Part shown: piece by piece, positions 1 to 20,000 of the stretch
How the letters are laid out: every line of letters starts with the position of its first letter
Position numbering within the stretch: the first letter of the stretch is position 1
Origin: Psammoneis japonica
Lineage: Eukaryota
Length of the DNA stretch: 20,000 nt
Assembly: GCA_008632985.1 (NCBI GenBank)
Contig: QPGO01000270.1
Coordinates: forward strand, 59,404-79,403
Direction of reading: 5' to 3'
Notes under the pieces: generated by a model
Told to the model about the DNA's origin: nothing
Databases searched by the model: none
The model's input: only the letters and a program-made list of their open reading frames with translations
Made by a program: the position numbers and the translations under genes

Positions 1-40
1 TCTGAAGTTGACTGAAAAATGGCGTCTCCGAGATGCGCAA

Positions 41-2933
41 ATGCGTGCTGGCACCATGAGCGGACAAGAAGCGACCACCGTCGCTGCCTCCGAGAGTGTC
101 TCCCCCCCCATGCAATCCATTGGTGAACATGGATCAACACCTCAAGCGTCCACTGGAGTGGTTGAAAGAGCTCAAATGGACCCAGCTCCACAACTAAATG
201 CTGCTGCTGCTGCTGAGACTCCTGCAAACAATGTTGAAGGCACTCCCGTGCAGCCTCCTCAAGCATCTGACCAAGGGAGCGGCAGAAGCAATGACTCTGG
301 ATCACAGAAACCGCCCCTGACAACACCTCGAACGAAAAGGAAGACAGGTTCGAAAAAGCGAATGAAAATCGGCCGTCAAGCGAAAGTCAAACGAATGGAC
401 CTCTGCCACATTCTCAGTGAGGTGCAATGACAAGCAATGCCTCGCGACGCCCCCAACGGCTTTCTTTTTTTTGGAACTGTCAAGGGCGGAAATTCAAAAG
501 TAGGTTGGGATGTTGATTTTGACACCCTTCCTGAATTGGATGAAAGAGTTTGTCATGTCACCGCTAACAAGATCACCGTCATGCAGGACTGGGAAGAGGA
601 AAACCCCATGTCAGAACAGGAACGTAGGAGCCGCTCGAAAGATGGCGACGATGACGAACCCGCGGCAAAGAAATCAAGGAAGACTTTGGCACTTCAATCA
701 TTGGATGAATTCTGTGAGCTTGAAGATGCAGAAGTTACTCAAAAATCCATCTTTGAAATGAGGCATGGAACCAATCCGCGATGCATTGAAAAGAAGGTTG
801 CATGGAAGACACACGGTGAGACAGAGTGCGCAACGGAGTCTCCACTCACAGTGCCGGACCCACCTGTTGAATTAAAGGACGTGGACTTTGCCAACAAGAG
901 CACACAAGAAAATTTCTTTGACCACGTGCTCCCGGATGTCACTGGTCACGGAAAGATTTTGGACAGATGCCTGAGTGACAGGAGAGCAAGCCATCACACT
1001 GCATGCCTTCAGCTTGACCGTGCTTTCCATGATCCGGATGCTGAAGATCCAGATTGGATGGCAAAGCAGTGTTGCACAGTGCTCATTGCAGCTGCTTCTA
1101 CAATTGAATGCGGAGTTGAAAATCTGTGGAAGTTGGGATCTTCAGAGGGTTGCTCGTTCTACCCCGACTTTGGGCAATGTGTTGACGTGAAAACTTTCAA
1201 GTGTTTCGAAAGCGCAGCTGCATTTTGTTGGGCCGACCCACAATGCTGGTTTCATGACAAACGCGACATGCCATGGGAAGTGTTTCTGCCGGCGCTGAAA
1301 GGATTCAATGACAGGAGACGACAACTCATCAAATCCCTTGTCTTGCCCTGGGTGGGAGCTCACAGTGCTGACGTGTGACACAAACAATTTTTGTCATCCG
1401 CAGCATGTTTCGCACGCACATTTCCACGTGTGACATCATAAAAAAATTGTCCAGACTCGCTGTTTTGCGAAGCCCCAGATGTTTCATGTGACGAATTTAT
1501 AGAAACAACGATGCACCAGTTGCATTCTTGAATGTCTGAAGAATGTAACTGGCCAAGCAAAAAATGATGTGCTTCAATCATGAGCGAGTTTGTGCATTCG
1601 CAAAATTGCCTCATTTTCTGTTGGCGATCATTGACATTTTAATTGCCGTGTGATTTTACTGTGGAGCTCGCACGCAGAATTCTACGGGCCCAATGTCACA
1701 CGGATTCCCACCTGCGTCTGGAACGCGTCACCCAAGACATCCAAGTTGGGTGGACTCCCGAATTGCACCCATGAGCCCCGCAAGCCTGTGCCTCTTGGAA
1801 CGATGTTTCGAAATGGGGCCGAATGCACTGCTGGCATTCTAGTGCACAACGACCTGGTTCAGCTGCCAGAACACCAGCAAATGAAGAAGTGCCACGGTGA
1901 GCAATCCAGTCTGCCTGATGGATCAAACATTCCTGTGCATGTGGCTGAAACACTGCGGCAAGTGGAGCATGCAGGAGTGAAGGAAGGCGGTTGGGTCGGA
2001 GGCGATGCATGGTTTGGCAGTGTTGTGAGTTGCGTCAAGGTGTCAAAACGGTTCAAAGTTCACTCGACCTTCGTTGTGAAGAATGACACTTCTTTCTTTC
2101 CAAAGGCTGCCATCCACAGAGTCATGATGGCACGACACAGCAATCGTTTGGCTGGAAAGTGGGTCACGTTCTTGATGACAATCGCTGGAGTGCAGCTGAT
2201 TGCCATGGGTTGCGCATGGAGCAAATCAAGTGTTGCATGTTTTATTTCAACGTGTGGACTAACCTCTCCATCGGACATGCCTCATGTGTCGAACTTCGAG
2301 AATGAGTGTGGAGAAGTGGCATCGAAGGAACTGCCATGCCCAAAACTTTGCGAATTTCTACATGAGCATCTGCCAATCATTGATGAACACAACAAACAAA
2401 GACAAGACATTCTTGGTCTGGAGAATTCATGGCCAACACGTTGTTGCTGGTTCCGGCTTCTTGTCACCACTGTTGGAATGTCAGTTGTGGATCTTCACCG
2501 GCTCTATCGGCACCATGACCAAACAACTCATGGGGGAGCCATGACGGCTAGAAAATTCTCAGACATGCTCTGCAAAGGCCTCAAGTGCAGGTCTGACCGG
2601 GACCGTCTCCCTCGAACTCCACCATCCAAGCCGGCAGCGGGAACACTCAAGCAAACAACCAATGATGCTGGCAATGCAACGAGACCTCCAACAGAGAAGC
2701 AACTTCAGAGCGGGCACAATGTTGGTCAACCGCATCAACAAAATTGTTGGATGTGTCGGAAGTGCAACAAGTGCACCACAACATCATGGTGCTGTGCGGA
2801 GTGTGACACGCCGCTGTGTCGAAAGAATCGGGGCCAAGGGTTGACCTGCAATGACGAGCACAGGACAAGCAGCGATCCACGCATCCGCTGCCAACCTGGA
2901 TGCAAGAAGGGTCAATTTCCTGATGAACTTTAG
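41..2933 (+). pseudogene. piggyBac-like (DDE_Tnp_1_7-type) transposase pseudogene, interrupted by a MITE at 1345-1729
   Basis: ORFs 8-430 and 437-1378 share a frame and are split by one TGA (428-430, probably from CGA). Coding resumes after the insertion with PKTSKLGGLPNxTxEPRKPVPLGT, then GDAWFGSV (second catalytic Asp), IDEHNKQRQ (third Asp) and a C-terminal Cys-rich domain CWMC...CxxCxxPLC...C..H. Stop TAG at 2931-2933. The start codon (ATG 41 or 56) is uncertain and no TIRs were found in the window. Confidence 0.85.
1345..1729. mobile_element. MITE copy 1, left end truncated, inserted in the piggyBac-like transposase
   Basis: 1351-1729 aligns without gaps to 3811-4189 (offset 2460, about 34 substitutions). 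It ends in the TIR TCCCACCTGCGTCTGGAACGCGTC. The outer part of the left TIR is missing. Confidence 0.9.
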
Positions 2934-3399
2934 AGTGATTTGTGGCATGTGACATGACTGCACAACTTGGTGTTTGCCACATGGTGCTGGCCTGATTCAT
3001 CAGGACCACAACATAACTTGGCGTTTGCTGCATGGCATCACCAGATTCACTTCCATCTCCCGCAGGGTCAGCCATTGCCATGCATCCTCAACACCATCAA
3101 GAAAAAACCAGCTGCTGCAGACACACATCATGCACCACTTCCAACAGTTGCAACCCATGACAACAGCGTCTCGCATCTTGCAACTTTCGCCTTTCAGGCA
3201 TGGGCCGGTTGGAGTGGTGCAAGTTCTGCATGACCACATCACAAACAAATGTGGCATCTCATGTGGTGTCTTGTAGAATCAATGCCAGGATTGCCGCAGG
3301 CCAGAGATGCCATGCATGGCATCATGGTGTCTGTGCGGATGACCACTGGCAGCAGCCAGTGCCAGTGGAAACAAAGTGGTGACATGCAGACATTTCGCC

Positions 3400-3775
3400 G
3401 TGCGTCACTTGCTTTGCCTCACTCAATGTCCTGCTGCTGCTAGAGTGGAGATCCGTCCCGCACTGTACAATGTAGAATCCTGTTTTGTAAAATTCCAAGC
3501 CTTGCCTCTGATGAGTGCCCAGCTGCTGTTCAGTGCAAGCTCCACCTCCCAGTCCCTCGATGGGACGGGGTCTTCACGGTGGAAAGGGAAGAAAGACGCA
3601 AAGCACTTCCAAGCACCGAGAGAAACTGCGTGAAATCCCAATTGGAAAGTGGTGGGGTGTGGATGGTTTGCAGTGTGTCACTCACCTTGCCTCGCTCCAT
3701 GTCCTGGTGGATCCATCCCACACTGCACAATGCAGAGTCCTGTTTTGTAAAATTCTGAGCCTTGCCTCTGATGAG
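3400..3775. repeat. Pair of ~105-115 bp diverged direct repeats (3400-3515 and 3673-3775)
   Basis: Shared core GATCCRTCCCRCACTGYACAATGYAGARTCCTGTTTTGTAAAATTC..AGCCTTGCCTCTGATGAG plus a similar upstream GTGYGTCACT..YTTGCCTCRCTC.ATGTCCTG. Confidence 0.85.
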
Positions 3776-3790
3776 CACACCACCACCATT

Positions 3791-4189
3791 GACGCGTTCC
3801 AGCCCTGGCAGGTGGGAGCTCGTAGTGCTGACGTGTGACACAAATGATTTTTGTCATCCGCAGCATGTTTCGCACGTGCATTTCTGTGTGTGACATTTTA
3901 AAAAAATTGTCCAGACTCGCTGTTTTGCGAAGCCCCAGACGTTTCACACAACAAATTTGTGGAAACAACAATGCACCAGTTGCATTCTTGAATGTCTGAA
4001 GAATGTAACTGGCCAAGCAAAAAATGATGCACTTGAATCATGGGCGAGTTTGTGCGTTCACAAAATTGCCTCATTTTCTGTTGGCGATCATTGACACTTT
4101 AATTGCCATGTGATTTTGCTGCGGAGCTTGCACATGGAATTCTACGGGCCCAATGTCACACGGATTCCCACCTGCGTCTGGAACGCGTC
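3791..4189. mobile_element. MITE copy 2, complete non-autonomous TIR element (399 bp)
   Basis: The left end GACGCGTTCCAGccctgGCAGGTGGGA is the inverted repeat of the right end TCCCACCTGCgtCTGGAACGCGTC. Subterminal CGTGTGACA/TGTCACACG motifs are present. Flanks CATT and CGTT may be a 4-bp TSD with one transition. Confidence 0.88.
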
Positions 4190-6500
4190 CGTTGCTGTTC
4201 AACGCAAGCTCTCAACCTCCCAGCCCTTCCTCCCCCCCTTGACAACTCTCCCTGCCCTTGCAGCCATGCTGTTCTCAATGCTTTGGAGATCATGCCTCTG
4301 CATGCAAGTGCAGCCACAAGCCCAAGCTCTCCAGTGGCATCTGCAACACCATCTTGGTCCTTGCACACACCCTTGGCTCTCTTCCCAAACTTTGTCACTC
4401 TCCCAATGATGCTCATCTTGAGCTCACAAACCTTCTTCCACATCGGCCCCTCCTTTGCCCGCTGATGTTGGCAGCACCGCCATCCCCCCTCCTGCCTCCC
4501 TTTCTGCTCCCTCCCAGCATCCACACATCACCGTCAATGCAACCTTCCCCAAAGCCCCTCCTCCTGGTCTGCCTGCCCCTCCCACTCCTGTCTCAACTGA
4601 GGCACACCATGTGAGCAAGAGGCCCAGGTTTCTGGGCTCTTCCACCTCCTCTTCTGATGGCTCAGTTGCCATCTTTTCCCTCAATGCCAGTGGGACAAGC
4701 CTCTCCCTGGGTCTCAATTTTCCCCTCCATGCAACACTCTGCAGCTTCCTTCAAAGCCTTTGCTCATGTGCTCTCTCTTCCCTGTCTGCTCTCCTCCCAT
4801 CTGCTGCTGACTTTGCATGGAATCAAATTTCCTCTGGCTGCTTTGACAGAGCCCATCACTCTGCATCTCCCTCCCAGTGTGCTGCACAGACTTTTGGCTG
4901 CACAACCCTGTTCGCCATTCTGCTGCCCACATCCTTTGTTTCATTTCCTCTCACCCCTCTCCCTCATCTCTGACTCCATCCCTTGAGTGCCCCACAAGTT
5001 GTCTTGCATGCCCCTTCTTTCCTCCTGCTCCCACAGCTCCTTTCATGCTGGCTCTTGCTGCTCATCTCCATGCTTCTGCATCTGCACAGGCTTTCACAAT
5101 TTCCACAGTTGCACTTTGCCCTTTTAACTTCACCCTTTTGGGGCCTTTTTTTCTGCTCCATGCTTTGCTGCACAATGCCCAACAATGAGAAATGGACAAT
5201 GCAGTGCATTTCTCAACCAGACAGCTCCAGCAGCTTGTGTGTCAATGTTGTGCACAGATCCACAGCGCAGCCATGTTCATCAATTCCAAAAAATGATGCA
5301 TGTGGAGAAATGGTCAATCTGAGACCTGCTTCTGCTGGACAGCCTTTTTTCTCTCCCTCACCATGCATGGCAAGTGAATTTGCTGCTTAGCATGTTGTCT
5401 TTGCAGTGTGGAGCTTTTGCCAATCGAGACTGCCCAATGCCCAATCATGCCATTTTTTGCCGCTTGCATGACACACCTGCGTGTGGGTGCAAAATCATCA
5501 ATTTTAAAGGAGCTTCCAATGGATGGACTTTTTGCTGTCCCTGACACATGCGGCAAATAAATTGGCTGGTCAGTGCAGTGTTTTTGCCATGAAGCAGTTG
5601 CCAACCAACTGCCCACTGCCCACTTCCATGCTGCTTTTGCCCCTTGCACAAATTGTCAGTTTGAGAGAAGCTTCTGCTGGATGCCCTGTTTTGTCTCATT
5701 CATTGTGTGGGGTGAGGGAACTGGCTGCATTGCACCAAGTCAAAAAACCACCACATGCTGCCAGGGCAACTTTTCTGCAAAAACACATTTCATTCCACAT
5801 GTGGAGAGAGGCTCAGATTGCAAAGTCATTTGGCAGTGTCTCCCGGCACAAACATTTTCAATGCTGTTTTGAAAGTGCTCTTTGCATGAGCCAAAGAACA
5901 CACCATCTGATTTGTTGAGCTGTGGCTCCCCAAAGAACACATGTTTTCACAGTTGCGATTTTTTGTGAATTTGTCAACTTGCAAAGACAAATGTAAATTC
6001 GATCTCAGCAAGATCAGCAACCCCCGCTGTGTTGCACGGATGCTTTTAACACAAATGAAAATTGGACATGAAGACTTGTCATTTGTTTTGGCACACTCCG
6101 GCACATCTTTTGCAAATGCATCAACACACTCACAAATGGACAAAACATTGTGTTTTGGTTTCTCCTTGCAAGTTTGTTCCCAACTTGGTGGCTGTGCAAA
6201 ATGTGGGAAAAATGTCCATTTTTTGAACTTTTTTGTTTGCACACAACTGGGAGCACATCACCTGGGGCTGTCCTCAGTGCATGGCAGTTTGGTGCACAGC
6301 ACCCACACAGTCAATGCCAGCACTGCTGCCAGCAAAGTGTTGCCGCTGAAAGTGTGGCTTCTGGAGGAGTGGTGTGAGAGCTGCTGTGTTTGCGCTGCAT
6401 TTGCATCATGTGTGGCTTTGCTGGGGAGTGGTGTCACAAATTGAGCAAAAGCTGGAAAAAGAAATGAAAAAAGGTGATGCTTTGGCACTCGTTCTGCTTT
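4190..6500. repeat. Heavily decayed repeat-derived DNA; 4190-5200 looks like a degenerate minus-strand coding relic
   Basis: No TA found in 4201-5120 and CG is rare. The plus strand is strongly pyrimidine-rich, giving E/K/R/G-rich minus-strand fragments. Family not recognised. Confidence 0.5.
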
Positions 6501-6734
6501 GCATGGAGCATCAGTCGTGTGTCATTCAGTCGTGCGGTGGTGCGCGTACGTTCTTCAGTCAGTCTTGCTTCAGTCGACAGACAGACTATCAAATATTTCA
6601 GACGACTCACTCGACTGCTTCGTAGCCGTCCGTTCTTGAAACTCATCGCGCGCAAACGTCGCGCGTTATCGGCAACACCCAACACACGACGAAGCACAAC
6701 AGTCTTTGTCGCCGCAGAAGACGAAAACAACGCA

Positions 6735-7187
6735 ATGGTACGTCGATATCCTTGCGTACACCGCTTTATTACATTCGTTGGATTGATTTTGTATTTACGA
6801 CAATGGATGTGTAACGGACAACTTGTGTCGGTGCTTCCGCAGCAGCTCAAAATTGTTCGTCATGATGATGTTTGTTGATTTCATTTGTCTGTACGACGTT
6901 CGTGTTTGTTTCTACGTAACTTTTGTACTAACGCTACGTGTTTTTGTTACCGCTTACTATTTTCGTTTGAACAGGATCAACCCGTCAAACTCGCCAAGGT
7001 GAACCGTGTTCTGGGAAGGACCGGTAATACCGGTAATGTCACCCAAGTCCGTGTCGAATTTATGGATGCCGAAGGTGGTGGTGGTGGTACCGGACGTTCG
7101 ATTGTTCGTAATGTAAAGGGACCCGTACGAGAGGGAGATATTTTGTGTCTGCTCGAGTGGGAACGTGAAGCTCGGCGTCTGAGGTAA
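6735..7187 (+). CDS. RPS28: 40S ribosomal protein S28 (eS28); exon 1 = ATG 6735-6737, intron 6738-6974, exon 2 = 6975-7187; 71 aa
   Basis: [32 protein letters not shown]...[30 protein letters not shown] is the eS28 signature. Donor GTACGT follows the ATG directly, branch point TACTAAC lies at 6926-6932, and acceptor GAACAG ends at 6974. Confidence 0.96.
6738..6974 (+). other. Spliceosomal GT-AG intron of RPS28 (237 bp)
   Basis: GTACGT donor, TACTAAC branch site, T-rich tract and CAG acceptor. Splicing gives in-frame M-DQPVK. Confidence 0.92.
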
Positions 7188-7739
7188 ACAAGAAAAAGTG
7201 CCTTGTTTAATAGGAGAGAGAGAAATATTGAAACAATCTGGAAGAGTAGTCTTTTTGATTTCCTTTTTGGTTGGAGTGTGCGAAGTGTTGTTTTGATGTT
7301 GCTACTCTTGTTTTGATTTTGAAAGTAGTACGAACGCATTGACCTAGAGGCAGTATGAACACCGCGCATTGAAGGACCACCATACTGTACTAGCATGCAC
7401 TCTAGTCACATTGCACTTTTGTTAGGAGCATGTAAATGAGGCGTCTTCGTAGGCCCTAGGGTGACGTCGATCGCATAGTCATGTCTTTTCTCCAATCCAC
7501 GAGCACAAACGATTATCTCCTCCGCAAAAGGTTAGATAAGGTCAGAATCTATTGACACGACTGTTCGCACCTTCCTGTTGTGTCGAACGTTCAGCATTGG
7601 CACGTAAAGTGGGTGCTTTTCATAGCAAGGGAGACTTGCAATGAAAAGCACCCATCTCCCATGAATCGAACGAGAACATACAATTTCCTTTAGTGCACGA
7701 TTGACCAGGATGGCGCACACTGCACATTCTGGACAAACG

Positions 7740-9940
7740 TCATGACAGCGACAGCAATTGATTTTTTTTTCATTTCAAACCTTCAAGAGTCTCCATCAAC
7801 AAGATTCCATTCACAGTCTGTCTTGCCAGAGACGACTTCCACCACTCTTGTTGCAGACCAGGGGAGGGAAATTGCAAACCAGCACTGCAGTTGGCAAAAA
7901 GAAACATCCCCGAGGAGGTCAGAACTGCACAGCTGTTTAAGAGATGAAGAGGTGGCGGCAATGGGGACGGTGGTGTCAGCCCCCCGATGTTGGCAGAGGA
8001 CACCCAGCCAGTCACCGCCAACCAAGAGAGATGGGCGGCATGATGAAAAGCCACATCTTCCACAACTCATCATTGCGCCCAGCAGTGGAAGTGGGGACAA
8101 ATCACATCTGCATCTGCTTTTGACAATTGTTCCTGCCAAAAAACTTTGGATGATTGTCTGCATCTGCTTTTGACAATTGCGCCTGCCAAAAAATGGCATG
8201 GTGCAGAAAGCATCGCAAGCCTTGCCAGCATCGCGAGGAGCGACCTGCGACCTGGCACATCTGCCTGAACATCCGCAAATTCCCCCACACCACTCACACC
8301 TGCCACCAGTGAGTTGTCAACATTCTCAAGGCACAAGTTGGGTGGGGTGACCAGCATTGTGTGGCAAGCTTCATGACCACTCAAGGCCCAAAGAGCACCC
8401 TTCACCAGGGGATTGAAGGCGACCCAAACATCGACATGGGATTTGCTCTAGCAGCTGACACATTCTGGCCCCATGTTGGACCTCGCAGCAGCAGGGAACA
8501 GTGACATTTTTGCACCAACGACGGACCTGGCATCAAAACCATGTGGGGTTCCACACAAAATTGAGCCTTTTCTCACCCATTTTGCAGCACCATTTTCACT
8601 TGCGAAAGTCCCCCTCCCCCCCCCCTGAGCCATTCTCACATGTCCGCAAATGGTGCAGAGCACTGGTTTGTTTTCATTTGTCAATGAGATTGGTGCACAA
8701 CAATGCAGCCATCTGATGCAAAAAAAATTTTACACTGGGCCACATTTCCAAGTGGGAAGAAATGAGCACACTTGTGAACATGACACAATTTTCTCTTCAA
8801 TGGACACAACAAGGGGTTCAAAAAGATGCAAACAACACACTGCTGAAAAAACAGCAGCAAATCCACACTGCAGCTCATGCAATCTTTTTTGCCAGTTGCA
8901 AAACACAATGAACACAATGGCATGACAACTGCACTGCACAAATCAAAAGGCAAAGATTGCTGTGGGTTTTTAGCAAGATGGCTGCATCAAAATGTGGCTG
9001 CTGCAAGGCTTTAAAAAAGACAGCAGCTGCCATGAAAACAACCATTTGCATCAAAACTGATGCAGCACTTTTGATGGTTCAACCACTGCAACACCTCAGC
9101 ATGTGCAGGGGGTCACCATTCTTTCCCCTTGTTCTGCACCTGAAATTGCAGCAGGCTTTGCAAACATTGAAAGGCTGGTCATGATTGAATGTTCATCAAC
9201 ACAAAGTCTTTGGGCAAATGTGCCTTTGACTGGAGTGCCCAATTTGGACACAAACATTTCCATCATTTGCTCACAAAGAGCTGGAGACATTGGATTGTGC
9301 AATTTTAAAGAGCTCACACATGCTTGGGATTCTGCAGCCAACATCACAAAAAGTCCCACCCAGGGCTGGAGTGCATCAGCCCTGTGAGGGATCTTGTGCT
9401 GCTGAGCTGTGCTGACATCAGAGTTTGTTTTTCATGTGCTGCATCATGTCATGCATGCACAACTCTGCATGCTGTCTTTCATGCAAAATTGCTGCTGCAC
9501 ACACACCCTGCTTTGCTCAAAGCCAAAGGCTTTTTTCATTGCACCGCCCCCCACGTCAAAAAAAATGAGCAGGGGGGCATTCTTGATGACATCTGAAGAG
9601 AAGCACTCCAGCCCCAGGTGGAAGCGCGCAGCACTCACACGTGACATGATTTTTTTTGTCATGCACCCAGTGTTTCAAGTGCACATTTCCACAAAGCTGC
9701 TGTTCTTTTTGGCACTGGCACGCCAACCAAATGACACCGGGATGACAACTGCAACATGATGAGTGGCTGTTGTCATCACTTTGCTTTGCTTGCAACACTG
9801 AGAGGAGTTCTAAATCCTTTCCCGCCCTGCGGCAATCTGCTTCTGTCTGACATCGGCATGCACAATGGTCCTGAGATGAGCCTCCGACTTCAACTGCGTC
9901 TGCACCATGCATGTCCGGACTGGATCCTCAAATCCCATCA
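7740..9940. repeat. Decayed repeat-derived DNA of unidentified family
   Basis: Same TA-poor, CG-poor, CA/TG-rich composition as the recognisable transposon relics. No credible intact ORF. Confidence 0.5.
8107..8193. repeat. Near-tandem 37-bp direct repeat, period 50 bp
   Basis: TCTGCATCTGCTTTTGACAATTG..CCTGCCAAAAAA at 8107-8143 and 8157-8193. Confidence 0.9.
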
Positions 9941-10134
9941 ATGGAACCACCATGGGAAAGTCAAAATCATGGGGCGGCACTAAAACTCCGTAGAAAATCA
10001 AGCAGAAAATGAATGGTCGAAGGAGTCAAAAACCCACCATCCAACAATCGCGATCGCTTTGGGGCCCACTCTGCTGGTTGTCAAGTGATGGCATCTGCTC
10101 GGAGTGCAACTCTAGCCAGAGGGCCTGCCATCTA

Positions 10135-10438
10135 AAAGCCACTAAGCTGTTCTAACACTGGCACAGATCTCAGCATCATTTTGATGTCACACACTGCACG
10201 CCTTTGTTGAAATGCATCATACAAAAAGCTGACTCAGAAAGTCCACGCCACCCAGACTTTGCAAAAACTAAACCAAGGCAACAGCTGCGACTGCACAACA
10301 TGTGCAAGCCACGCAACTGGTCTAAAATTGGTGCAGATCTGAGTGTTGTTTTGACACAAAACTGCAAGCCTTTGCTGAAATGCATCACACACAAAGCTGA
10401 CTCGGAAAGTCCATGCCTCCCAGACATCACAAACTAAA
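10135..10438. repeat. ~135-bp internal duplication of the transposase 3' end (10135-10271 and 10304-10438)
   Basis: Both copies contain CAGATCT.AG...TTTTGA...ACTGCA.GCCTTTG.TGAAATGCATCA.ACA.AAAGCTGACTC.GAAAGTCCA.GCC.CCCAGAC. On the minus strand both read W.AWTFxVSF..DAFQQR. Confidence 0.85.
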
Positions 10439-11840
10439 TCAACACTCCATTGCTGGTTTCTCATGCCGCGACTGAGAAACCAGGACAGTTTGCATCGTTT
10501 GACAGCTCGCTCATTGCCTGATCTTGTCACAGCAACACATGATGAACAAAGTACATTGACAACACCTGAAAGCTTGTCAACTCTGTCTGGTTGGCAACAC
10601 AGCTGCTCCTCCTGCTTTGCTTCCAACAGCAGATGGCATCCTTTGTCAAATGTGTTCAAGAAATGCTTCACAATTGTGCCCTCTCCTCCCGCAGGAGTGT
10701 CATTCTCAGCAAAATGTTTTTGTGGCTCAAGTGTCTTTGTGGATCGAATCTGCTGGTCATCATCACATTGGCCTGTGACAAGAGGAAGGCCAAAAATCCA
10801 GATGCAGAGCTGTGCGGCAATTCCAGCTTTGGCGCAGCACATTCCATGACACACATTGTGTGGCAATCGATTCATGTCCCCAGAGCTCGGGTCTCCCATG
10901 CATGTGTTGGACGTGTCATGCATCACAGGTCGGTGGCCATCTTTGGGGTTAAAATGTTGGTCCCGCTGGCGCTTCCGGAACTTCACATCCTCGTTGTGTG
11001 ATGCATGCATTGGCCATCACTCACGGCACTCCAACTCTTTCTTCAATCAGCATTTTAACACCTTTCCCAACGTCTTGTGATCTGCACCATGCTCCCTCTC
11101 CCAGTCCTCCCAATGTGCCATTGTTCGGCCAAATGAAAATTTGTGCGTGAAGAGGAGCTCTTCAACAAAAGTCACACAGGTTGCCATCTTTGTCATTTCA
11201 TCCAAATTGCCACCAAGCACTGTTGCACCACACTTGAGAAGATGCTTCAAATTCAAAAATCCTGTGCGATGCTTCACTTCCTTGGGAGTGAGTGAGAAGA
11301 GCCCGATCTTTGGTTTGTCCCGGGGCATTGACCTGCAGCATTCTCACCGGCTGTTGCTTCCTTTTGCGAAGAAGTTTTTTCACTCTCACGCAATCCTTCT
11401 TGTACAAGCACATGTTGCGTCTGAACAGACAAGACAGATTCTTGAGCACTTGCATTGACAACATGGCGGAGCATTTCTCAGTCAGTCCCCAGTCCATCAG
11501 AATCAGTTCTTGGAGGCAAGTGAAAGCTCTTCTGAGACCCGATTGGCTTTGGTGCTTCAAATGCTTTGATGGGTGCATGCTCCTTGTTGCACTTCGTTGA
11601 CTTTCCTTTCACCATTTCCATTGGGTGCTTGTCACAATGCCTGAGCTCTCCTTTGCCATGTGCTCTTCCTGGGCCCATGCAATCAGTCCACTCGCAATGC
11701 TTGGACAGTCGGATTTGGTGAGATTTCTGTCATTGATTGCTCCAGTGGGACGGCAGCTCCTTTGGATGGTTCGGAGCTTTGTGAAACTTTCTAAAGCAAT
11801 TTTTGCCATTGTTTGAGCAACCTTTGAAGTGACAGTGTTT
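10368..11840 (-). pseudogene. THAP-like + HTH + DDE_Tnp_4-type transposase region of the element (degraded)
   Basis: THAP-like CHFKGCSN...FHKAP...LRHCDKH (about 11840-11625), EVKHRTGF...EELLF helical region, and catalytic core VMHDTSN...CAKAGIAAQLC.W...TG..DD...FDKG(C/Y)...RSGNERAVKRCK. Stops and frameshifts are present. The 3' end is approximate. Confidence 0.82.
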
Positions 11841-12719
11841 GTGCTTTCTCTTTCTCTCTTCAGGACCGGGTTGCACATTTTTGGTGGAATGCAAATGGTT
11901 GGTGGCAGAACTCAAAATGTTTGTCATGTCAGCAAGCGGCTGCCCTTGACGCAAACAAGAACCGGTGCTTCTGCTGGTGCCTGAACCCACCAGCAATCAA
12001 GGTTGCTTTGATGATGGTTCTGTCACAGAAGGCGCTTCCATCCATTTCCACAAAAAACATGGCACTCTCAAATCTGTCTGCCATGCGATGCACCCACTGG
12101 TGCTCGGAATTATGATCCACCGCGGGATCATTTGCTCTTGGAGATCGAGCATGCGCAAGCTTCGCACCGATTGGAGTGTCCACATTGTTGGCTTTCGCTG
12201 ACTGTTTTTCTGGACGCAGCTCGTTCATTCTGTCTTTGCCAAATGGCACAGAAATTGTTTTGGTCGCCAAGACAACATTGTTGAATTTGGCCATGGTTGC
12301 CATCCCTTTGGGTGTGTTGGGAATGTCAATGCCAAAAAGGGGTTTGGGGTGAGATTCAGGGTTGCTTTCATTTTTCACCAAGTTGTCGGCTTTCCCAACA
12401 GGACTTTTGTGTTTCGCTTTGTCACGCAACAGACCAAGATCTCGCAACATTGGTTCTCCCAGGGAAAGCTTTTCCTCCCAATCTGTTGTTGCTGAGCAAT
12501 CATTCAACAGCTCCACAACCGTGGCAGTGGATTGCAAGGTGGGCGGAACCCGACCCGAAGCCTTGATCTTCATCCTTCAACCTTTTTCAACACTGGAGCC
12601 CCCACCTGACCGCTGATGTTTTCTTCCTTTCTAAGGTGACTGCAAAGGCTCGCAAGGACAAAAGATGACATTGTTCCACCACTTCAAAACAGTGACTGGC
12701 TTCCCTGAGCCAGCCGACC

Positions 12720-14376
12720 AAAACTGTGCATGCAGGCAACACGATCCTCTCCCAAATTTGATGCAGACTCGTTCACACACCCAGCCCGGCAGTGACATGA
12801 TGCAGCAACTGGTTCAGTGGCGTTGAATGCAGTGGCTCCCCTGCATTTCAGCAATTTCATCAAAGCAAGAATCTTGTTGCTCAAAATCAGACACTCTTTC
12901 CCCTCATGGGCAGCAAGAGTCACGGTTCCAAGTAAATTGTCCAGACTGCCGGCGTCCGTCGCATGTCAAATGCCCCTCTTGCACAGTTGCTCACCTGTGT
13001 GAGCTCTGGTGTTTTCAGCCACAGCCACTGCATTCCGTGGAAGGACGTGCTTGTGTGAAAGCTTCTCCCCTGGCTTTCAGATTCCAAGTTTGGTTGGAGA
13101 TGCCAGAATGTCAACAACAGCTGTGATGGAAGCAAGCGGCATGTCTTCATCTGCAATGAGCTCCGGCAGCTCCTCCACAGTGACAGTTTTCAACTGAACA
13201 AGATGGGGCACATGCAGCCGCTGTCATTGTGACTCATTTTTTCATGCAACAATCCCTTTGCTGGACACAACACTGCATCACTGGAGTTGACAGCTGCTCC
13301 ATTCACACCTGCAATGTCTTCCGCAAGAGCTTTGTGCAGCTCTTTCCCAGTCTTCTGTGAGTGCCTTGCAAGCAAATCCACTGCAGCTTTTGGACCACAT
13401 CCATCGACTCCTTGTGGACAAGCATCACATCCCAACAGGAGAGCTGCAAGGGCCCTTGTCATTGGATCATCAACCCCACTGAATGTTGGGTGGCCTGGAG
13501 TTTGGCCATCACGTTTGGCATCTTTGTCTTCATCAAATGGCGAGTGCCCCAACTTCACACTCAGAGTCTCCTCGATGATCTCAGCAATCATTTGCTGACC
13601 AGCACAAAGCCAACATGCTGATTGGGATCCTTCATTTTCGAAACAGAGATGTCTTTGATCACAATGTCAAGTCCATTTGGACCGACGTACATCGAGAAAT
13701 CTGAGTCACCCGACACAATTGCATCGGCACCCGAGTCGATGACCACCAATTTTGCAACACACGGGTCCGCCTGCATCAGTGCAGTGACAGTGGAGACCAC
13801 TCCTTTCCCCTGTGGATCACACTCTTCCACCATGCTTGTAAGATTTGTGTGAAAATCCGGCGTCAACCCACGATCCAGCATGCTTTCTAGGCCGCGGATC
13901 TTCTCCCAGGCCTTGTCCGCTTGCTCCGCATGGTCTGCCGGACTTTCAATGCTTTCAGCTCCAAGGAGACTCTGTAAATTAGATTGAGCAATAAAGAGCC
14001 GAGTCTTGGCCTTTTCAGCTTCAGCACGGCATCTACAAGAGGCACGCTTGGAGGCATGACGGTTTGTCGGATGGTCGCAGACAATGTGAGCGTCGCACAG
14101 TTTCTCAGACAGAGCCTTGGCTGTGTGAAAGACAGCATGCTCTGGGAGGAATGATGAGTGGTTGCCAGCATACTTGTGTGCTAATAGATTTGCATCAAGT
14201 ACTATCTTCAATCATTGTCTAGGGGGAGAGGAGTCAATCTCAACGCTTTCTGCAGCTGCTCGAGTTTGTCGTTCCAAACGATCCCTTTTTGCCACTTCTT
14301 GGATGACCAGCAGCATCAAATCAAGAGGAAGCTTTACAGTCTTCCAAAGAATTAGATGAGCACCCTTTAGACCCAT
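12720..14376 (-). pseudogene. XPG/FEN1/Exo1-type (PIN-like + H3TH) nuclease followed by a SWIM-type zinc finger; 5' part of the transposon reading frame
   Basis: The ATG at 14376 gives MGLKG (XPG-N-like start) and is in frame, through one TGA, with IVLDAN. Then follow IVCD...RHASKRAS, QADPCVA, IVSGDSDF and the H3TH motif LLGCD..P.GVDGCGPKAA (about 13440-13380). CHCRAG...ACMH (CxC...CxH) lies at about 12800-12726. Confidence 0.8.
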
Positions 14377-14719
14377 CTTTCATACAGAGGAGTGTTGGTT
14401 CGGCAACAATGTGATGACTTGTCAATGAAGAGTGCGTCACGATTGATGGCTGTGATGTGTTCAAGCCGTCTCAAAATTTCTCGTTTTAGCGCGGCGAAGT
14501 ACGATCGTAGTTTCTACGTAATTTTAGTACTGCCCCACACTTTTGGACTTTCCCACGGTTCCATGCATGCGTCGGAGAGTTGCGGAGTGACCAGTGACCA
14601 TGCCCACTTGCGCATGTGCTGTCAATCATCCGTCGTCATTTATTGACATCGAACTTGCAGCACTCGTTCTCTCTCTAGCAGCAGGCGTCTTCCAGAACAG
14701 AATATAAGAAGACAGAAGA

Positions 14720-16432
14720 ATGGATCCCGACGATAAAAAGAGGAAGCGAGCAGAGCTTGTCAGTGACGAAATCCGTGCGTTACAAGAGGAGCACGAGAAG
14801 GAGCTCAAACAAAAAGACGACGCCATACGAGCTGCCATGAAGCTGCTCTGCAATCCTGGAAATGTGCCGAAAAGGTGGCGCTGCATGCCTGATTCGATCA
14901 AAAACAACCCCACGGCGATTGCTGAAGCCATTGCGGGTGACTTGTTTCGTACGGAGGATACTTCGAAAGTGAGCGACAAGGTGCTGCAAGAGGCCGTGTC
15001 AATGTTGTTGGAAAATGATCGCGCGGCGGCGGTCAAGGCCTGTGAGAAGGGCGTTCTACCATGGAGCAAAGTAAAACCAACTGCAGAAGAGTGGCGTGGC
15101 TATGCTTACTTGTCCATGAAGGCGCTTACGCTCGGCAAGGTAAACGACGCTTCGCAAGTTCCGATTGTGACACATAGAATGATCAATGATGCTGTAAAAA
15201 ATGGATACCTTTGGTGGGAATATGTTCCAACAAGTTTCAAGGATGACTTAGACTTGTGTCGAATGATTCTGGATCCGTGGGATGCATCATTCCGAATTGA
15301 GGAGGACCGCCTCAAGGATCGTTTTCGTCCGATAGGCGGTACAAATTATGATGAAGCATCACGGGCTGCGGTTGATATTTTGGATCGTCACTCTTCGCTT
15401 CGCGGAGATCATCAAGTGTGGGAGAAGCTCATATCGAGCAATAAGAATTATGCTCAAACCATCATTAGAGGAGTATTTCAAGCTGGTGGTGGATATTTAC
15501 AGCCTGGTGGCGATCATTTGAAAGAAGCCTGCACCAAGGACTTCTCACTCCTCTTGGAAATTGATCAAGTCACTCATCATCATTTGGTTCGTGATTTCAT
15601 TGAAAAAAATGCAAATACTGTGTTTTGGACGACCGAAGAATTCATTGTGGCCTTTCCTGAATTTGTGGCCTCTCAGCTTGATCGTGTTGACCCCCAGCAG
15701 CCCTATTTCTCTAACTTGGAAGACTTTGCGGGCATCATTACTGATTGCTCCATGTGGACAGATGATTTAAGTGAGAGGTGGCTTCAGAGAGGCCTTCCAA
15801 TTGCACGCACTCATCCAGAGGATTGGAGAAGTGACCGCCAGAAGTTCTTGATGGTCGCTCGTTATGGCATAAACCGAGAAATAAAAGATGGGTCGTTTAG
15901 ACATGCCGACGGAGACCTCCTGGTTGATGCTGAGTTTATCACTCAACTGATGGAAATAGACCCATGGCTATTCTTGTATGCTTCGGATGAATTGCGTAAC
16001 GAGAATTACGAATTAGCTGTTTGGGCGATGGGGAATAAATACTTTCTGAAGCGTTGCTATGAATCCATTTCTAGAGTAGCGAGGCGGAAACGACAAGGAA
16101 CACAACGTCACCTGGCTCCTATCTTGACGGAAGAAAAATTGAAAGAGTATTATACTCGAGCCATGAAGGAATTGGCAGAGCATGATAACTTTGTAAGAGG
16201 ATTCCTCTGTGCCGTTTGTGTGCACGACGATCAACGAATCATGTGCGAGATGAATCACACTCCCCTGTTGAGGAACATCCGGGACTTTGCGGGGATTGCC
16301 ACAGGTTCCCATCTACGCAACATCCGAAAGGCCGTTGCTGTGTTCAAAGAGAACCAAGCCAAAAGTAGCCAGAGGGCTTATTTGTCTCACACTTCCGAGC
16401 TGGGAACGATCTTGGTCGTCTTGCATGCATGA
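14720..16432 (+). CDS. 570-aa intronless protein, probably DUF4116-type helical-repeat family
   Basis: Long uninterrupted ORF with normal composition (16 Tyr). N-terminal basic stretch KKRKR and coiled coil. DUF4116-like segments DAEFITQLMEIDPWLFLYASDELRNENYELAVWAM and WEYVPTSFKDDLDL. The CDS is firm and the family call is tentative. Confidence 0.75.
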   Translation: MDPDDKKRKRAELVSDEIRALQEEHEKELKQKDDAIRAAMKLLCNPGNVPKRWRCMPDSIKNNPTAIAEAIAGDLFRTEDTSKVSDKVLQEAVSMLLENDRAAAVKACEKGVLPWSKVKPTAEEWRGYAYLSMKALTLGKVNDASQVPIVTHRMINDAVKNGYLWWEYVPTSFKDDLDLCRMILDPWDASFRIEEDRLKDRFRPIGGTNYDEASRAAVDILDRHSSLRGDHQVWEKLISSNKNYAQTIIRGVFQAGGGYLQPGGDHLKEACTKDFSLLLEIDQVTHHHLVRDFIEKNANTVFWTTEEFIVAFPEFVASQLDRVDPQQPYFSNLEDFAGIITDCSMWTDDLSERWLQRGLPIARTHPEDWRSDRQKFLMVARYGINREIKDGSFRHADGDLLVDAEFITQLMEIDPWLFLYASDELRNENYELAVWAMGNKYFLKRCYESISRVARRKRQGTQRHLAPILTEEKLKEYYTRAMKELAEHDNFVRGFLCAVCVHDDQRIMCEMNHTPLLRNIRDFAGIATGSHLRNIRKAVAVFKENQAKSSQRAYLSHTSELGTILVVLHA

Positions 16433-16752
16433 GAGCGCGACGAAGATTTTCAAGATAAGTTCCGTTGTGTAAATCCCCCAGAAGTGAACACAGAACCGAG
16501 TTGCGGGTGCTGTATTAAAAGAGACCCAGGCCGAAGGTATCCAGAGTGCTGATGGTTCGTAATTTGCTTGTAACATGTCTTTATGCTTTTCCCCTTACGC
16601 CGCTTGCATACACAGTAGTTTACAATATCTGCGTTTAGTCTATGTAAGAAATAGATTGAAGTAGTCTCACACTTTCGAGCTTGGAACGATTTTGGACGTC
16701 TTGCATGCGCAGAAGAGCGTAACGACCGAATTCAAAAGAAGTACCATTGTGT
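16384..16752. repeat. ~88-bp diverged direct repeat (16384-16470 and 16664-16752)
   Basis: GTCTCACACTTYCGAGCTKGGAACGATYTTGGWCGTCTTGCATGC...GAGCG..ACGA...TTCAA.A.AAGT.CCRTTGTGT in both copies. Confidence 0.88.
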
Positions 16753-17198
16753 GATCTTTAGGTATGGGTCAGAATCTAGTGATACCACTGTCCGCATCCT
16801 CATCTAGTGTCGGCCGTTCAGCATTTGGTGCCTGCGGTAAATTCTTTTGCAAATCTCCAACGAATGGAACGAGAATACAGTCTCCTTCACAACGCGATCA
16901 AAATGAGGACGATAGAGTACTACATTTTTTCTGGACAAACCACGCATATGACACCGACAGCAATTTGATTTTGTTACTTTCAACCGTTCAAGTTTCTCGT
17001 ATGTACAAGATTCTATTTTTACAGTAGAAAAAGTTAATCTCACCAATTCTTACTGCGCGCCACTCTTGTTATTGAAGCCCACCACTCTCTTGTTTTGCAC
17101 AGCGCGCGTTATAGTAAAAACATCCGAGATGATACCTACTCGATCGCAATCTCTCCTCATACGTACACAATTTCCAAAACACATACCCTCTTCTTTCT

Positions 17199-17894
17199 TT
17201 AAGCAATCCCAACAAACGCATTTGCAATATCTCGTTTTTGTTGTGCATTGTACGCATTGTATTCGAATACCGCCTTCCAAAAGGTCACCAACTTTTCGTC
17301 GGCATCACCATGGTGCGTTGCTCCCGTGGCCACGACGAGAATGGCATGACAATTCTTGACAATGTTGATACTACCCTTGAGCGAAGACAACAATTTCTTG
17401 GTTCGTTGAGCGACCGTTTTGGAATTTTGAATCAGAGTTGGATCTCTGTAACTCGAAACCATGGCGGTCGGTGCAATCAAATTCATACACGCCAGAGGTG
17501 CTAAAATTTCAAAATCACTACGCTTCATGGCATTCAAGAGTATGGGTGGCATACGATCCTCATCGGCAATCGTTTTGTCGCCAACTTGAGTCACATAGGC
17601 GGCAAAGAAACCACGCATTCCATCGTAATGAGATAATTGTGCCGTCAAGAGCTTCACGAGTTGTTGTTTATTTTCGGTGGAAGAAGAACCGAGTGCCTTG
17701 ACAAGGACAGAAGCATGATAGACTTGTTCGGTAAAGTCGTGTGTCGAAACGTCCTGGACGGTTGGGAGATTGGCATAGTAAAGTGCCGTTGTAGTAGTTT
17801 CGAGACGAGTTGTTGGAGTCGACACAAACGCTAACGACGGTGCTGCTGACACTGTCAATCCTAGTACAAGCAGTAATTCTTTCATTGGTATCAT
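17199..17894 (-). CDS. Putative plastid-targeted conserved hypothetical protein (231 aa)
   Basis: Hydrophobic signal peptide LLLVLGLTVSAAPSLA, then F at +1 (ASAF-like motif SLA-FVS), then a Thr/Ser-rich transit peptide. The mature region contains AQLSHxDGxRGFFxxYxT...AD...LACMNLIxPTAM. The start may be the ATG at 17885. Confidence 0.8.
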   Translation of the reverse strand: MIPMKELLLVLGLTVSAAPSLAFVSTPTTRLETTTTALYYANLPTVQDVSTHDFTEQVYHASVLVKALGSSSTENKQQLVKLLTAQLSHYDGMRGFFAAYVTQVGDKTIADEDRMPPILLNAMKRSDFEILAPLACMNLIAPTAMVSSYRDPTLIQNSKTVAQRTKKLLSSLKGSINIVKNCHAILVVATGATHHGDADEKLVTFWKAVFEYNAYNAQQKRDIANAFVGIA

Positions 17895-18326
17895 GGTTTG
17901 GAATAAGAGTCTCTTGTTTTTTTTATTCTTGTTGTTTGTTCTGTTGTCATTGGCGCGTCACAGTTTTATGAAAAAAAAAACAGCAGGCGCAAAAAGAACA
18001 CGAGCAAACAAGAATTCCGATTCTTGAAACGCGGTGCCAGTCCCGGATACGACTCAATCAATTGGAATTCAACATTTAACGGAGGGGGTCATCAATTTGG
18101 TTGTTTATCCTAAAATGCAGAAACATTTGAATAAGGCTATTTTATAAATGTTGATTTTGAATACAAAAATTATTCCCATTCGCACCTGATCGCGCACGAA
18201 AACGAAGACATCAGGCTCGCTCATCTTCCATCTAAATCAGACTGCTAAACAGACCAGTGCACTAGCTAGTTTTGCATAAATTAGACTACATTATTCTCCT
18301 TACTATCAAGCAATCCAGTATGCTAT

Positions 18327-20000
18327 TTATCGCGAAGCCGGCGCCGTGAGACCGGCAACACCGGTCTTTTTGGCGGTACCCGAAGTCGTCATGTAGGGTC
18401 CCCACGACGAAACGACATCGACTTCTTCTTCACTGTCGGCATTGGCAAGCATTTCATTGGCAAATTCCCGAGCAGCCTTGATACGACGAACTTCCTTCAT
18501 ACGGACCATCTTGTTGCGGACAATCTTGCGCCAATACGAGCCGTCTTCGTTGGGTTGCACCACAACGACACTTCCGTCCTTTTCGTCATACATGACAACC
18601 GCTTGTTCTCGTCCGGGAATGCCACCACAGTCGGCTCCCTCCATTCCTTCCTCGTCGGAGATTTCACATTCGTCTTCGATACCCGAATCAATCACTGCAA
18701 TGTTCTTGCCAACAAGCTCATCGGCACCCACCACAAGACCTAGAGGTGCAAGAGTGGACTGATCGTACTCGACAAGCATACCGTTCAACATACCGAGAAC
18801 ACGGTTATCCGCCATTCTCCACCAAGCCACCGTTTCCGGCGTAACCTTTTCGTTGACATGAAGCGTACCATCCTCATCGTACGGAATGTACCCATCATCG
18901 GGGGATGGAGCTCATCACCGGCGCTCGGCGCGTACACCTTGAAGTATTCTTCACCCTCTCGTGCTCATCTTCATGAGCATACACACCGACTTCATTGCTG
19001 TTGGACTTGTAGGTAATGGTGGCATCCAAACGAATGGCACCGTCCTTTTGATGATCCACGGTACAAATCTCAAATCCGTCCTTGTTACCACGAATCAAAC
19101 GAGACTGTTGACGGCCATCGCGGGAGGTTCCACCGCGCATGACGGACGTTTGAACAAAGACACAGCTTCCTCGATTCGGATAAGGACCGTCCTTGGGATC
19201 AATCGTGGGAAACGTAATGGAATCTTGGTAGTCCTGTCCGAGATGAAAGTGTCCCGAGAACCACGCCTTGATACAGCGGTGTTCACGGACAATTTCAATG
19301 AATTTGCGACACTTTTTGTCGTCCGAATGGTTCAACCAGCAGCAGCCATTGACGACATGGTTTTCTTGCAAGACACGGAGACCGGATCCATTGGGGGGAG
19401 CGTGAGAAAAGACAAAAATCTTCCAATCCTCCTCGGCGGGATGGTCCTTGACGGTCTGTTCAAACCATGCCATTTGCTCATCGTCAATCGTCACTTCGTG
19501 CGATGTGTACTTGGCATCACGAAACACGGTGCTGCCGAGTCCCACCAAGAGAGTCTTTTCCGCAATCAAACGCGAAAAGTACGGCGTGGGCTTGTCGTGT
19601 ACGCGAAGGTACATTTCCAAATTCTCCTCGTCCGTTCGAATCTAGTAGAAATAAGCAGAAATAAGCAGAAACGTATTAGTATCAGGTCCATGATGGATAA
19701 CACTTTGTACACACACTCTCGAATATTTCTTACTCATCCAGTCCCTCCAAATCGTGATTACCACCAATAAGTTCATACGGAACTCCAAACGAACTCAAAA
19801 CTCGGCTGCAAGTTCGTGGCATTCCGTGGTTCCCGCAAACAATTCCGAGGTTTCGTCGGGCCGTACCGATTTGGATTCGCCCAAATCACCCAACGATACA
19901 AGACAAACATTACCGTGATTGTCCTTGGCTTGTTGGAAAATGGGTTTCCATTGTTCTCGGCCTACTTCATAGTCTTCCATTTTTCGTGGATCAATGTGCA
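18327..20000 (-). CDS. Calcineurin-like metallophosphoesterase, 5'-truncated by the window edge; intron 19733-19642; four apparent 1-nt deletions
   Basis: Motifs in order: (D)xHIDPR at the edge, LGDLG, GGNHDLEG (about 19765-19742, not shown in the ORF track), FSHAPP, WFSGHFH. Intron GTAAGA...CTAATAC...CTAG. Stop TAA at 18329-18327. Confidence 0.88.

Follow-up and report, generated by a model that had tools for sequence, protein, structure and literature searches.

Near-complete loss of TpA to CpA/TpG in transposon-bearing and single-copy DNA around a spared eS28 gene in a contig of Psammoneis japonica

Introduction

The closest described counterpart of the pattern reported here is the TpA-specific hypermutation of integrated DNA from NCLDV (nucleocytoplasmic large DNA viruses) and from virophages in Bigelowiella natans, presented in a preprint by Mettrop et al. 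(bioRxiv 10.64898/2026.01.13.699255). According to the text of the preprint, 231 of 302 nuclear point mutations in mutation-accumulation lines fell into integrated giant-virus and virophage regions, and 230 of these 231 were A>G or T>C, all 230 at TpA; rates were ~6e-7 per site per generation (elevated range ~1e-7 to 1e-6) and the effect was seen in some lines only. The B. natans genome was reported to contain 124 clusters of TpA-poor, CpA+TpG-rich windows (cut-offs of the preprint: Rho TpA <=0.43, Rho CpA+TpG >=1.52, at least three 1-kb windows running), and among its TpA-poor coding sequences (CDS), domains of DDE endonucleases and of reverse transcriptases are over-represented. As the enzyme, the authors proposed an ADAT2-like adenine deaminase, and the preprint cites DNA-editing cases from amphioxus and trypanosomes for ADAT2. 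Here, we analyse a stretch of 20,000 bp from Psammoneis japonica (contig QPGO01000270.1, positions 59,404 to 79,403; in the following the window, with position 1 as its first letter), in which TpA has almost vanished from two large blocks that hold remnants of DNA transposons, whereas a ribosomal protein gene between them is spared. The original prediction, made from the letters of this window, had known of no described pathway of this kind, which is superseded by the B. natans report; among the matches listed for TpA-type hypermutation outside fungi, this preprint was the sole relevant one.

Other systems share single features with the pattern in the window. Repeat-induced point mutation (RIP) of ascomycetes likewise inactivates mobile DNA by mutation, with transitions only and a dinucleotide-ratio signature; it is triggered by duplication in the sexual cycle, changes C to T at CpA, which creates TpA, and makes stop codons. 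Deamination of 5-methylcytosine (5mC) lets CpG decay to TG and CA, products that are also found in the window, and CpG loss is the usual mark of cytosine-methylated DNA. TadA and ADAT2-3 convert A to inosine beside a 5' U/T, the neighbour also seen here; their natural substrate is a tRNA loop, in which the target A34 follows the invariant U33, and not chromatin DNA. In animals, ADAR and APOBEC3 mutate parasitic nucleic acids by deamination, and ADARs prefer a 5' U, but their substrates are dsRNA or the ssDNA intermediates of replication, and the clusters that they leave are strand-coordinated. TadA/ADAT2 are listed with the substrate 'RNA, DNA?' in the table of one review of the field (PMC10661471).

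Results

The observed/expected ratio (o/e) of TpA was 0.00-0.24 in all 25 500-bp windows of positions 1-6500 and 8001-14000, whereas the 13 500-bp windows of 6501-7500 and 14501-20000 gave 0.26-0.77. A TA-by-TA listing puts sharp borders at 6547 and 7691, with which the CpG borders coincide. The window consists of a first erased block (1-6546; TA o/e 0.00-0.20 per 500 bp, CpG low too), a spared island of 1.15 kb (6547-7691; TpA 0.63-0.77, CpG 1.0-1.7) with the CDS of ribosomal protein eS28 (6978-7184, plus strand; PF01200 with E 5.9e-28, PDB eS28 chains with E 1e-24), a second erased block (7692-13687) whose right border is gradual (~13.7-14.2 kb), a transition zone in which TA returns (13688-14200), and host genes; TA o/e of 0.5-0.77 is kept in the eS28 island and in the genes from 14.2 kb onward. 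The original prediction had described TA as nearly absent from repeat DNA and common in the genes, and the counts bear this out: a single TA is present within bases 1-420, at 195, and the stretch between 4144 and 5124, which includes 4201-5120, is free of TA.

The two erased blocks were pooled (12,542 bp) and compared with the host parts, i.e. the remaining gene-bearing 6,946 bp. The erased blocks contain 65 TA (o/e 0.08), where ~800 are expected by base composition and ~460 at the host ratio; the host parts contain 284 TA (o/e 0.57). About 87% of the expected TA is missing from the erased blocks, and their coding and non-coding portions are equally depleted. CpG is depleted as well, with an o/e of 0.43 in the erased blocks and 1.13 in the host parts, and falls to 0.00-0.2 in 4501-6500 and 8501-9500. 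CA (o/e 1.65 vs 1.19 in the host parts) and TG (1.75 vs 1.12) are enriched, and the blocks (6.5 and 6.0 kb) with these values lie inside the B. natans cut-offs. The other A/T steps are not depleted (AT 0.91, AA 1.27, TT 1.23), TC has an o/e of 1.00, and the GC content is 49.4% in the erased blocks and 46.2% in the host parts. Taken as one group, the four pyrimidine-purine steps account for 24.3% of the dinucleotides of the erased blocks and for 24.4% of those elsewhere, and the gain of CA+TG (6.8% of dinucleotides) about equals the loss of TA (3.6%) plus the loss of CG (3.4%), so that roughly half of the CA/TG excess stems from CpG loss. The scarcity of TA that had been noticed is therefore real, but the prediction had overlooked the co-loss of CpG.

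The loss of TA also changes the stop codon content. TAA and TAG together, counted on both strands, occur 7.5 times per kb of erased DNA and 33 times per kb of host DNA, TGA is left as almost the sole stop in erased DNA, and stop-to-stop open reading frames (ORFs) of at least 70 aa are more frequent there (8.1 per kb) than in host DNA (5.6 per kb).

The direction of the change can be read from the tyrosine codons of the transposase remnants. The original prediction had pointed to a scarcity of Tyr in these remnants. This holds for the 258-aa ORF, which has none, against 16 in the 570-aa host ORF (14720-16432, plus strand; DUF4116 domain, normal TpA), which serves as internal control; for the piggyBac-like transposase, the 313-aa ORF has one and the 427-aa ORF two, i.e. 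3 Tyr in 740 codons and not 2 in ~850 as had been given. In an alignment of the C-terminal piggyBac-like part with 28 homologues whose Tyr content is normal, the window has Cys (TGC/TGT, 4) or His (CAT, 2) in each of the six conserved Tyr columns, whereas the other conserved columns are kept in 135 of 162 cases (summed from a per-residue table). The Harbinger-like ORF, aligned with 46 homologues, gave the same result: six of six conserved Tyr columns are His (3) or Cys (3), and 111 of 136 other conserved columns are kept. Its other changes include Ile>Thr and Leu>Pro, two of each, as is expected because ATA becomes ACA and CTA becomes CCA. In a second alignment of both piggyBac-like parts, eight of ten Tyr columns are Cys/His, one is Phe, one is Arg and none is Tyr. 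The individual motifs named in the prediction behave accordingly: PDFGxY is present in 10 of 12 homologues where the window has C, PNYTYEPRKP is found in the three nearest homologues where the window reads PNCTHEPRKP, and DKGC stands at a column in which Tyr is conserved at 0.93.

The relatives of the transposase are not short of TpA. Eight related loci on metagenome contigs (38-56% protein identity) have a TA o/e of 0.56-0.83, hence the family is not TA-poor by nature. There are Tyr-poor members elsewhere: 12 of 140 piggyBac-like database hits of at least 150 aa, plus several Harbinger-like ones, are Tyr-poor, some with Cys/His at the same columns. Of nine conserved Tyr columns in the protein P0036, 7 read His and 2 Phe; of five in P0075, 4 read Cys and 1 His; and of eight in P0159, 5 read Cys, 2 His and 1 Tyr. 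The composition of P0036, with His in 7 of 9 and zero Cys, would mean conversion of one strand in that copy. A scan of viral contigs with the Tyr-poor homologues P0036 and P0159 returned zero loci.

Copies of the same repeat within the window differ in the way expected from independent TA loss. The three repeat pairs have 82 mismatches, 28 of which are found in 14 tandem doubles with CA in one copy and TG in the other, 7 are TA vs CA/TG and 18 are CG vs CA/TG; 11 other transitions and 18 transversions make up the rest. Between the short direct repeats 3373-3515 and 3646-3775, which lie in a high-depth zone (3373-3775), there are 4 CA/TG doubles, 2 changes of the TA type and 5 of the CG type. 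The second pair is a 385-bp element, present as an insertion that splits the piggyBac-like gene (1346-1730) and as a second, 90% identical copy (3802-4189). Its 34 mismatches include 7 CA/TG doubles, 4 TA-type and 11 CG-type changes. By our own arithmetic, the 13 shared and 11 half-lost CpG of this pair predict ~1 CpG-derived double; since 7 are seen, most doubles represent TA lost independently in each copy. About 14 ancestral TA in 385 bp, which is a host-like TA frequency, each lost independently per copy, would give the 7 doubles. The paired differences that had been quoted before are present as described (T/C at 3466 and 3473, A/G at 1499 and 1501).

Taken together, the Tyr columns (12 of 12), the normal TpA of the relatives and the CA/TG discordance between copies show that the direction is loss of TA, as had been proposed. 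RIP runs in the opposite direction and CpG deamination alone leaves TA untouched, and the earlier statement that neither explains the pattern is upheld.

The process has no preferred strand. The blocks contain 1,368 CA and 1,285 TG, no 500-bp window of the blocks has a CA/TG skew beyond p ~0.035, and CA and TG succeed each other at random along the blocks, without runs (runs test z 0.29 and -0.47). TA loss is thus strand-symmetric and proceeds site by site. Bursts of a processive single-strand deaminase were considered and are unsupported, since neither strand asymmetry nor strand-coordinated CA/TG runs were found. A sequence context is apparent on the 3' side. For this comparison both adenines of each TA were counted, which gives 130 cases for the 65 surviving TA and 564 for host DNA. 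T follows the adenine on its 3' side in 9 of the 130 survivor cases but in 144 of 564 cases in host DNA, which amounts to 0.27x relative to host and 0.23x relative to the metagenome relatives (chi-square p 8e-10 and 6e-9), and purines are enriched 1.4-1.9x at this position. The commonest words among the 65 survivors are CTAA (13) and TTAA (12). Judged from these survivors, TAT and TAC look like preferred substrates over TAA and TAG. At the edges of the eS28 island, which is of the expressed type, the process stops within ~100 bp.

Besides TpA loss, the erased DNA shows remains of dead mobile elements. Using nine full-length homologues, tblastn revealed one piggyBac-like transposase gene in two parts (32/218-1345 and 1731-2930) on the plus strand, separated by the 385-bp insertion. 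The N-terminal part (32-1345) corresponds to homologue residues ~72-506 and the C-terminal part (1731-2930) to residues ~496-917; over residues ~72-917 the window aligns to piggyBac-like homologues with E down to 5e-119. The 5' end of the element may fall beyond the window. A comparison of the 427-aa ORF (1650-2933) with 1.84 billion representative proteins gave 1,850 homologues (E up to 1e-3), and the piggyBac transposase domain PF13843 (DDE_Tnp_1_7) is present in 10 of 18 tested homologues, whereas for the piggyBac-like ORFs of the window no Pfam family was matched (E up to 0.1). On the minus strand, a 258-aa ORF (10237-11016, stop-to-stop coordinates) is a PIF/Harbinger-like DDE transposase remnant: it has 52 homologues at 43-65% identity, the nearest Harbinger-like protein being 64% identical. 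PF13359 (DDE_Tnp_4) is carried by one of the 52 homologues in precomputed annotation and was found by hmmscan in one of three scanned homologues (P0175; 29.7 bits, cut-off 24.8), and the window ORF itself matches no Pfam family. The missing Pfam matches of both transposases are the expected outcome of heavy missense damage. When 63 stop-to-stop ORFs from the blocks were compared with Pfam, eS28 was the sole match above the cut-off, and 4.2-6.5 kb, 7.7-10.1 kb and 11-13.6 kb have zero matches.

The 385-bp insertion keeps 7 TA, and the 1.3 kb of transposase gene upstream keep 8; the younger DNA is less erased than its host element. In contigs of the X1 data (Logan), the summed contig depth of the 385-bp insertion is ~900x that of single-copy bins, a figure that is not a copy number. 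Because of this depth, the element may be a very abundant family resembling miniature inverted-repeat transposable elements. Its second copy (3790-4189) is delimited by a 12-bp inverted repeat, GACGCGTTCCAG ... CTGGAACGCGTC, and the first copy is without the left terminus. The summed X1 depth also suggests several copies of the Harbinger-like element in the genome.

The original prediction had called the loss repeat-specific. This is too narrow and is not shown by the data: 4670-6546 and 7692-9338, which are the most depleted, have about single-copy summed X1 contig depth at >=80% likeness. Position 4670-6546 is the most depleted stretch of all (TA o/e 0.00-0.08, CG o/e 0.07-0.22) and has no Pfam match. 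These single-copy stretches are either very old and diverged, or the trigger is something other than repetition. Furthermore, the edge at ~7691 cuts through a host-like segment that is duplicated in the window (7540-7811 vs 16767-17017). Of the 12 TA that the host copy has to the right of 7691, the copy at 7540-7811 retains none and has CA/TG in place of 7; of the 7 on the left it retains 2, with another 2 shifted by one column. With an alignment that is just ~69-81% identical, this edge crossing lends weak support to TA loss.

Over 4443-8625 the X1 contigs deviate from the window at 1 letter, and over 8610-10033 at 5. In single-copy erased DNA, an X1 contig has TA at 8910 where the window has TG, and the differences at 8437, 9886 and 9898 are CpG-type. 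These four differences are possibly recent mutations or strain differences; 8910 alone proves nothing.

Discussion

We consider it likely that a local, targeted mutation process has over time turned TpA into CpA/TpG in silenced DNA, i.e. in dead piggyBac- and Harbinger-like transposons, the 385-bp element and unannotated DNA. What the sequences show is a cumulative, TA-specific A:T>G:C transition process in domains that also display CpG decay, TA being its own complement; its targeting would be given by the chromatin or methylation state and not by sequence repetition. The underlying reaction may be deamination of adenine in DNA to inosine, which is read as G. By analogy, a TadA/ADAT2-type deaminase is a tentative candidate for the enzyme class, with a good deal of doubt attached; different from these enzymes, the 3' preference in the window is T>C>purine and not the ACG of tRNA-Arg. 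As a consequence Tyr would be recoded to Cys/His, ATA and CTA/TTA codons would be changed and TAA/TAG stops would vanish; transposase genes would thus be inactivated by missense and not by stop codons.

The process would be of the same kind as that revealed by the B. natans mutation-accumulation lines. In both cases, TpA goes to TpG/CpA only, which leaves DNA poor in TpA and rich in CpA+TpG; the effect is local, neighbouring host genes are unaffected, and foreign or mobile DNA including single-copy DNA is affected. There are also differences. The identified targets in the window are DNA transposons and unannotated DNA, whereas they are viruses in B. natans; the TA o/e is 0.08 here and 0.45 in the NCLDV region there; and CpG is lost in the erased domains of the window, whereas the preprint text reports almost no C>T (10.64898/2026.01.13.699255). 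The terms CpG, piggyBac and diatom are absent from that text. In B. natans, a de novo rate was obtained from the lines, whereas the window is read from sequence alone. The TpA erasure described here belongs to the kind described in 2026, and the window probably represents the B. natans-type signature in a second organism, to which it adds DNA transposon targets, near-saturation, co-location with CpG decay, sharp borders that respect genes, a 3'-neighbour bias and strand symmetry.

Several observations weigh against this interpretation. It is drawn from a single 20-kb window in which de novo mutation was not observed, and its tie to the B. natans process would be that of a shared signature alone. 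The B. natans regions are without C>T excess, whereas CpG loss here is as large as TA loss; two processes are superimposed, and the proposed coupling of the two is just co-location. Of the 40 differences from other X1 copies that have the best support, 19 are of the CpG type, more than those of the TA type (2 singles and 4 doubles), and present divergence between copies is therefore mostly CpG-driven. The 3' bias comes from 65 survivors that were compared with proxy ancestors, and TTAA newly made by piggyBac-type insertions could contribute to it. X1 may be the same sample as the assembly and is not independent proof against a sequencing artefact. Finally, TA is self-complementary, so sequence alone cannot separate A>G from T>C chemistry.

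This last point leaves room for thymine chemistry. In silenced DNA, a TET/JBP-type enzyme would oxidise the T of TpA to 5-hydroxymethyluracil (5hmU), or to a base carrying further modification, and mispairing with G or faulty repair would then give T>C on one strand and, as TA reads the same on both, the products of A>G on the other. In dinoflagellates, 5hmU is tied to transposon silencing (PMC11572971), and in Breviolum it is enriched on repeats, with older work indicating a preference for TA/TC; the same source found no sequence motif for 5hmU in Breviolum (PMC11071213). In the window, TC steps are undepleted. Moreover, 5hmU is just weakly mutagenic, and we regard this chemistry as unlikely. 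GC-biased repair or gene conversion in heterochromatin, by which mismatches are resolved towards G:C and A:T is slowly lost, would fit the slightly higher GC content of the blocks and the multicopy nature of many elements, among which ectopic conversion is possible. However, the loss is limited to TA, whereas AT, AA and TT persist; just 11 of the 82 between-copy differences are transitions outside the CG/CA/TG/TA network, and single-copy stretches are most depleted, which makes this explanation very improbable. RIP was rejected: neither a TpA excess nor a high TpA/ApT index was found, TA is destroyed here (TA 0.08, AT 0.91), stops are lost and single-copy DNA is affected. CpG decay is present in the blocks and shares the boundaries of TA loss, but cannot remove TA and explains just about half of the CA/TG excess.

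That no mutation process was at work, and that the elements arrived TA-poor or were selected against TA (as TTAA insertion targets or by a TA-cutting nuclease), deserves hardly any credence. In most genomes no dinucleotide is rarer than TA, and piggyBac inserts at TTAA, which would suit this idea, but Tyr columns conserved over 28 and 46 homologues are Cys/His in the window, the relatives have normal TpA, coding and non-coding DNA are equally depleted, and selection on a shared ancestor cannot give CA in one copy and TG in its sister. TTAA is also a best-surviving TA word (12 of 65) and not the worst. ADAR-like A-to-I editing of transposon transcripts with subsequent reverse transcription and reinsertion would draw on the UA preference of ADAR (5'UAG in the table of PMC10661471), and the preprint discussion draws this parallel (10.64898/2026.01.13.699255). 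Yet the identifiable elements are DNA transposons, the depletion spans non-coding flanks and ~3.5 kb of single-copy DNA, both strands are affected equally and without runs, and TAG survives better than TAT/TAC although ADAR prefers a 3' G; this route is extremely improbable. The same arguments set the window apart from ADAR/APOBEC3 hypermutation of animals, its targets being chromosomal DNA transposons. An artefact of base calling or polishing at modified bases, which do cause systematic errors in long-read assemblies, could in principle turn TA into CA/TG. We give it next to no weight: the X1 contigs agree with the window over the stretches given above, the changes are fixed, discordant between copies and reach 12 of 12 Tyr columns, and the same Tyr>Cys/His changes occur in 12 of 140 piggyBac-like and several Harbinger-like proteins from other sources.

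Returning to targeted TpA mutation, one may speculate, at odds short of even, that TpA erasure is a wider protist defence aimed by the same silent-chromatin/5mC state that lies behind CpG decay, such that CpG and TpA both end as CA/TG, transposons and single-copy DNA are hit alike and TAT/TAC are consumed before TAA/TAG. A TA-only mutator of silenced DNA would be a new class of eukaryotic genome defence, with one preprint on one alga so far. The window suggests that erasure can be nearly complete, that ordinary DNA transposons are targeted and that gene boundaries are respected within ~100 bp, and the coincidence with CpG decay points to targeting by chromatin or methylation, which offers a route to the machinery. 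There are consequences for annotation as well: erased DNA fills with long spurious ORFs and its transposase remnants fall below Pfam thresholds, so that erased regions are mis-annotated. Many genes predicted in erased regions, perhaps including the unannotated TpA-poor CDS of B. natans, may be spurious. If true, a natural DNA adenine deaminase with a preference for TA would be of interest for base editing.

Additional features of the window

Ordinary genes follow past 14.7 kb: next to the gene of the DUF4116 protein there is one for an orphan protein of 231 aa, and a further exon is metallophosphatase-like. The host genes of the window are intron-poor. For the 570-aa and the 231-aa host ORFs, 5.8 billion protein clusters contained one relative each at 41-42% identity and no exact match. 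A minus-strand ORF of 207 aa (13591-14211), which overlaps the transition zone, is His/Cys-rich, has 2 Tyr and is without family match. Possibly it represents a gene at the block edge that has been erased in part.

The host-like duplicated segments (69-81% identity) comprise, besides 7540-7811 and 16767-17017, the pair 16384-16470 and 16664-16752. They are located downstream of two genes, those of eS28 and of the DUF4116 protein, and a shared terminator, an untranslated region or an old repeat are possible natures. Just upstream of the eS28 CDS, 6601-6800 has 25 CG in 200 bp, and the CpG o/e reaches 1.7 in 6501-7000; by its composition, this CpG-dense segment looks like an unmethylated promoter island amid CpG-poor surroundings.

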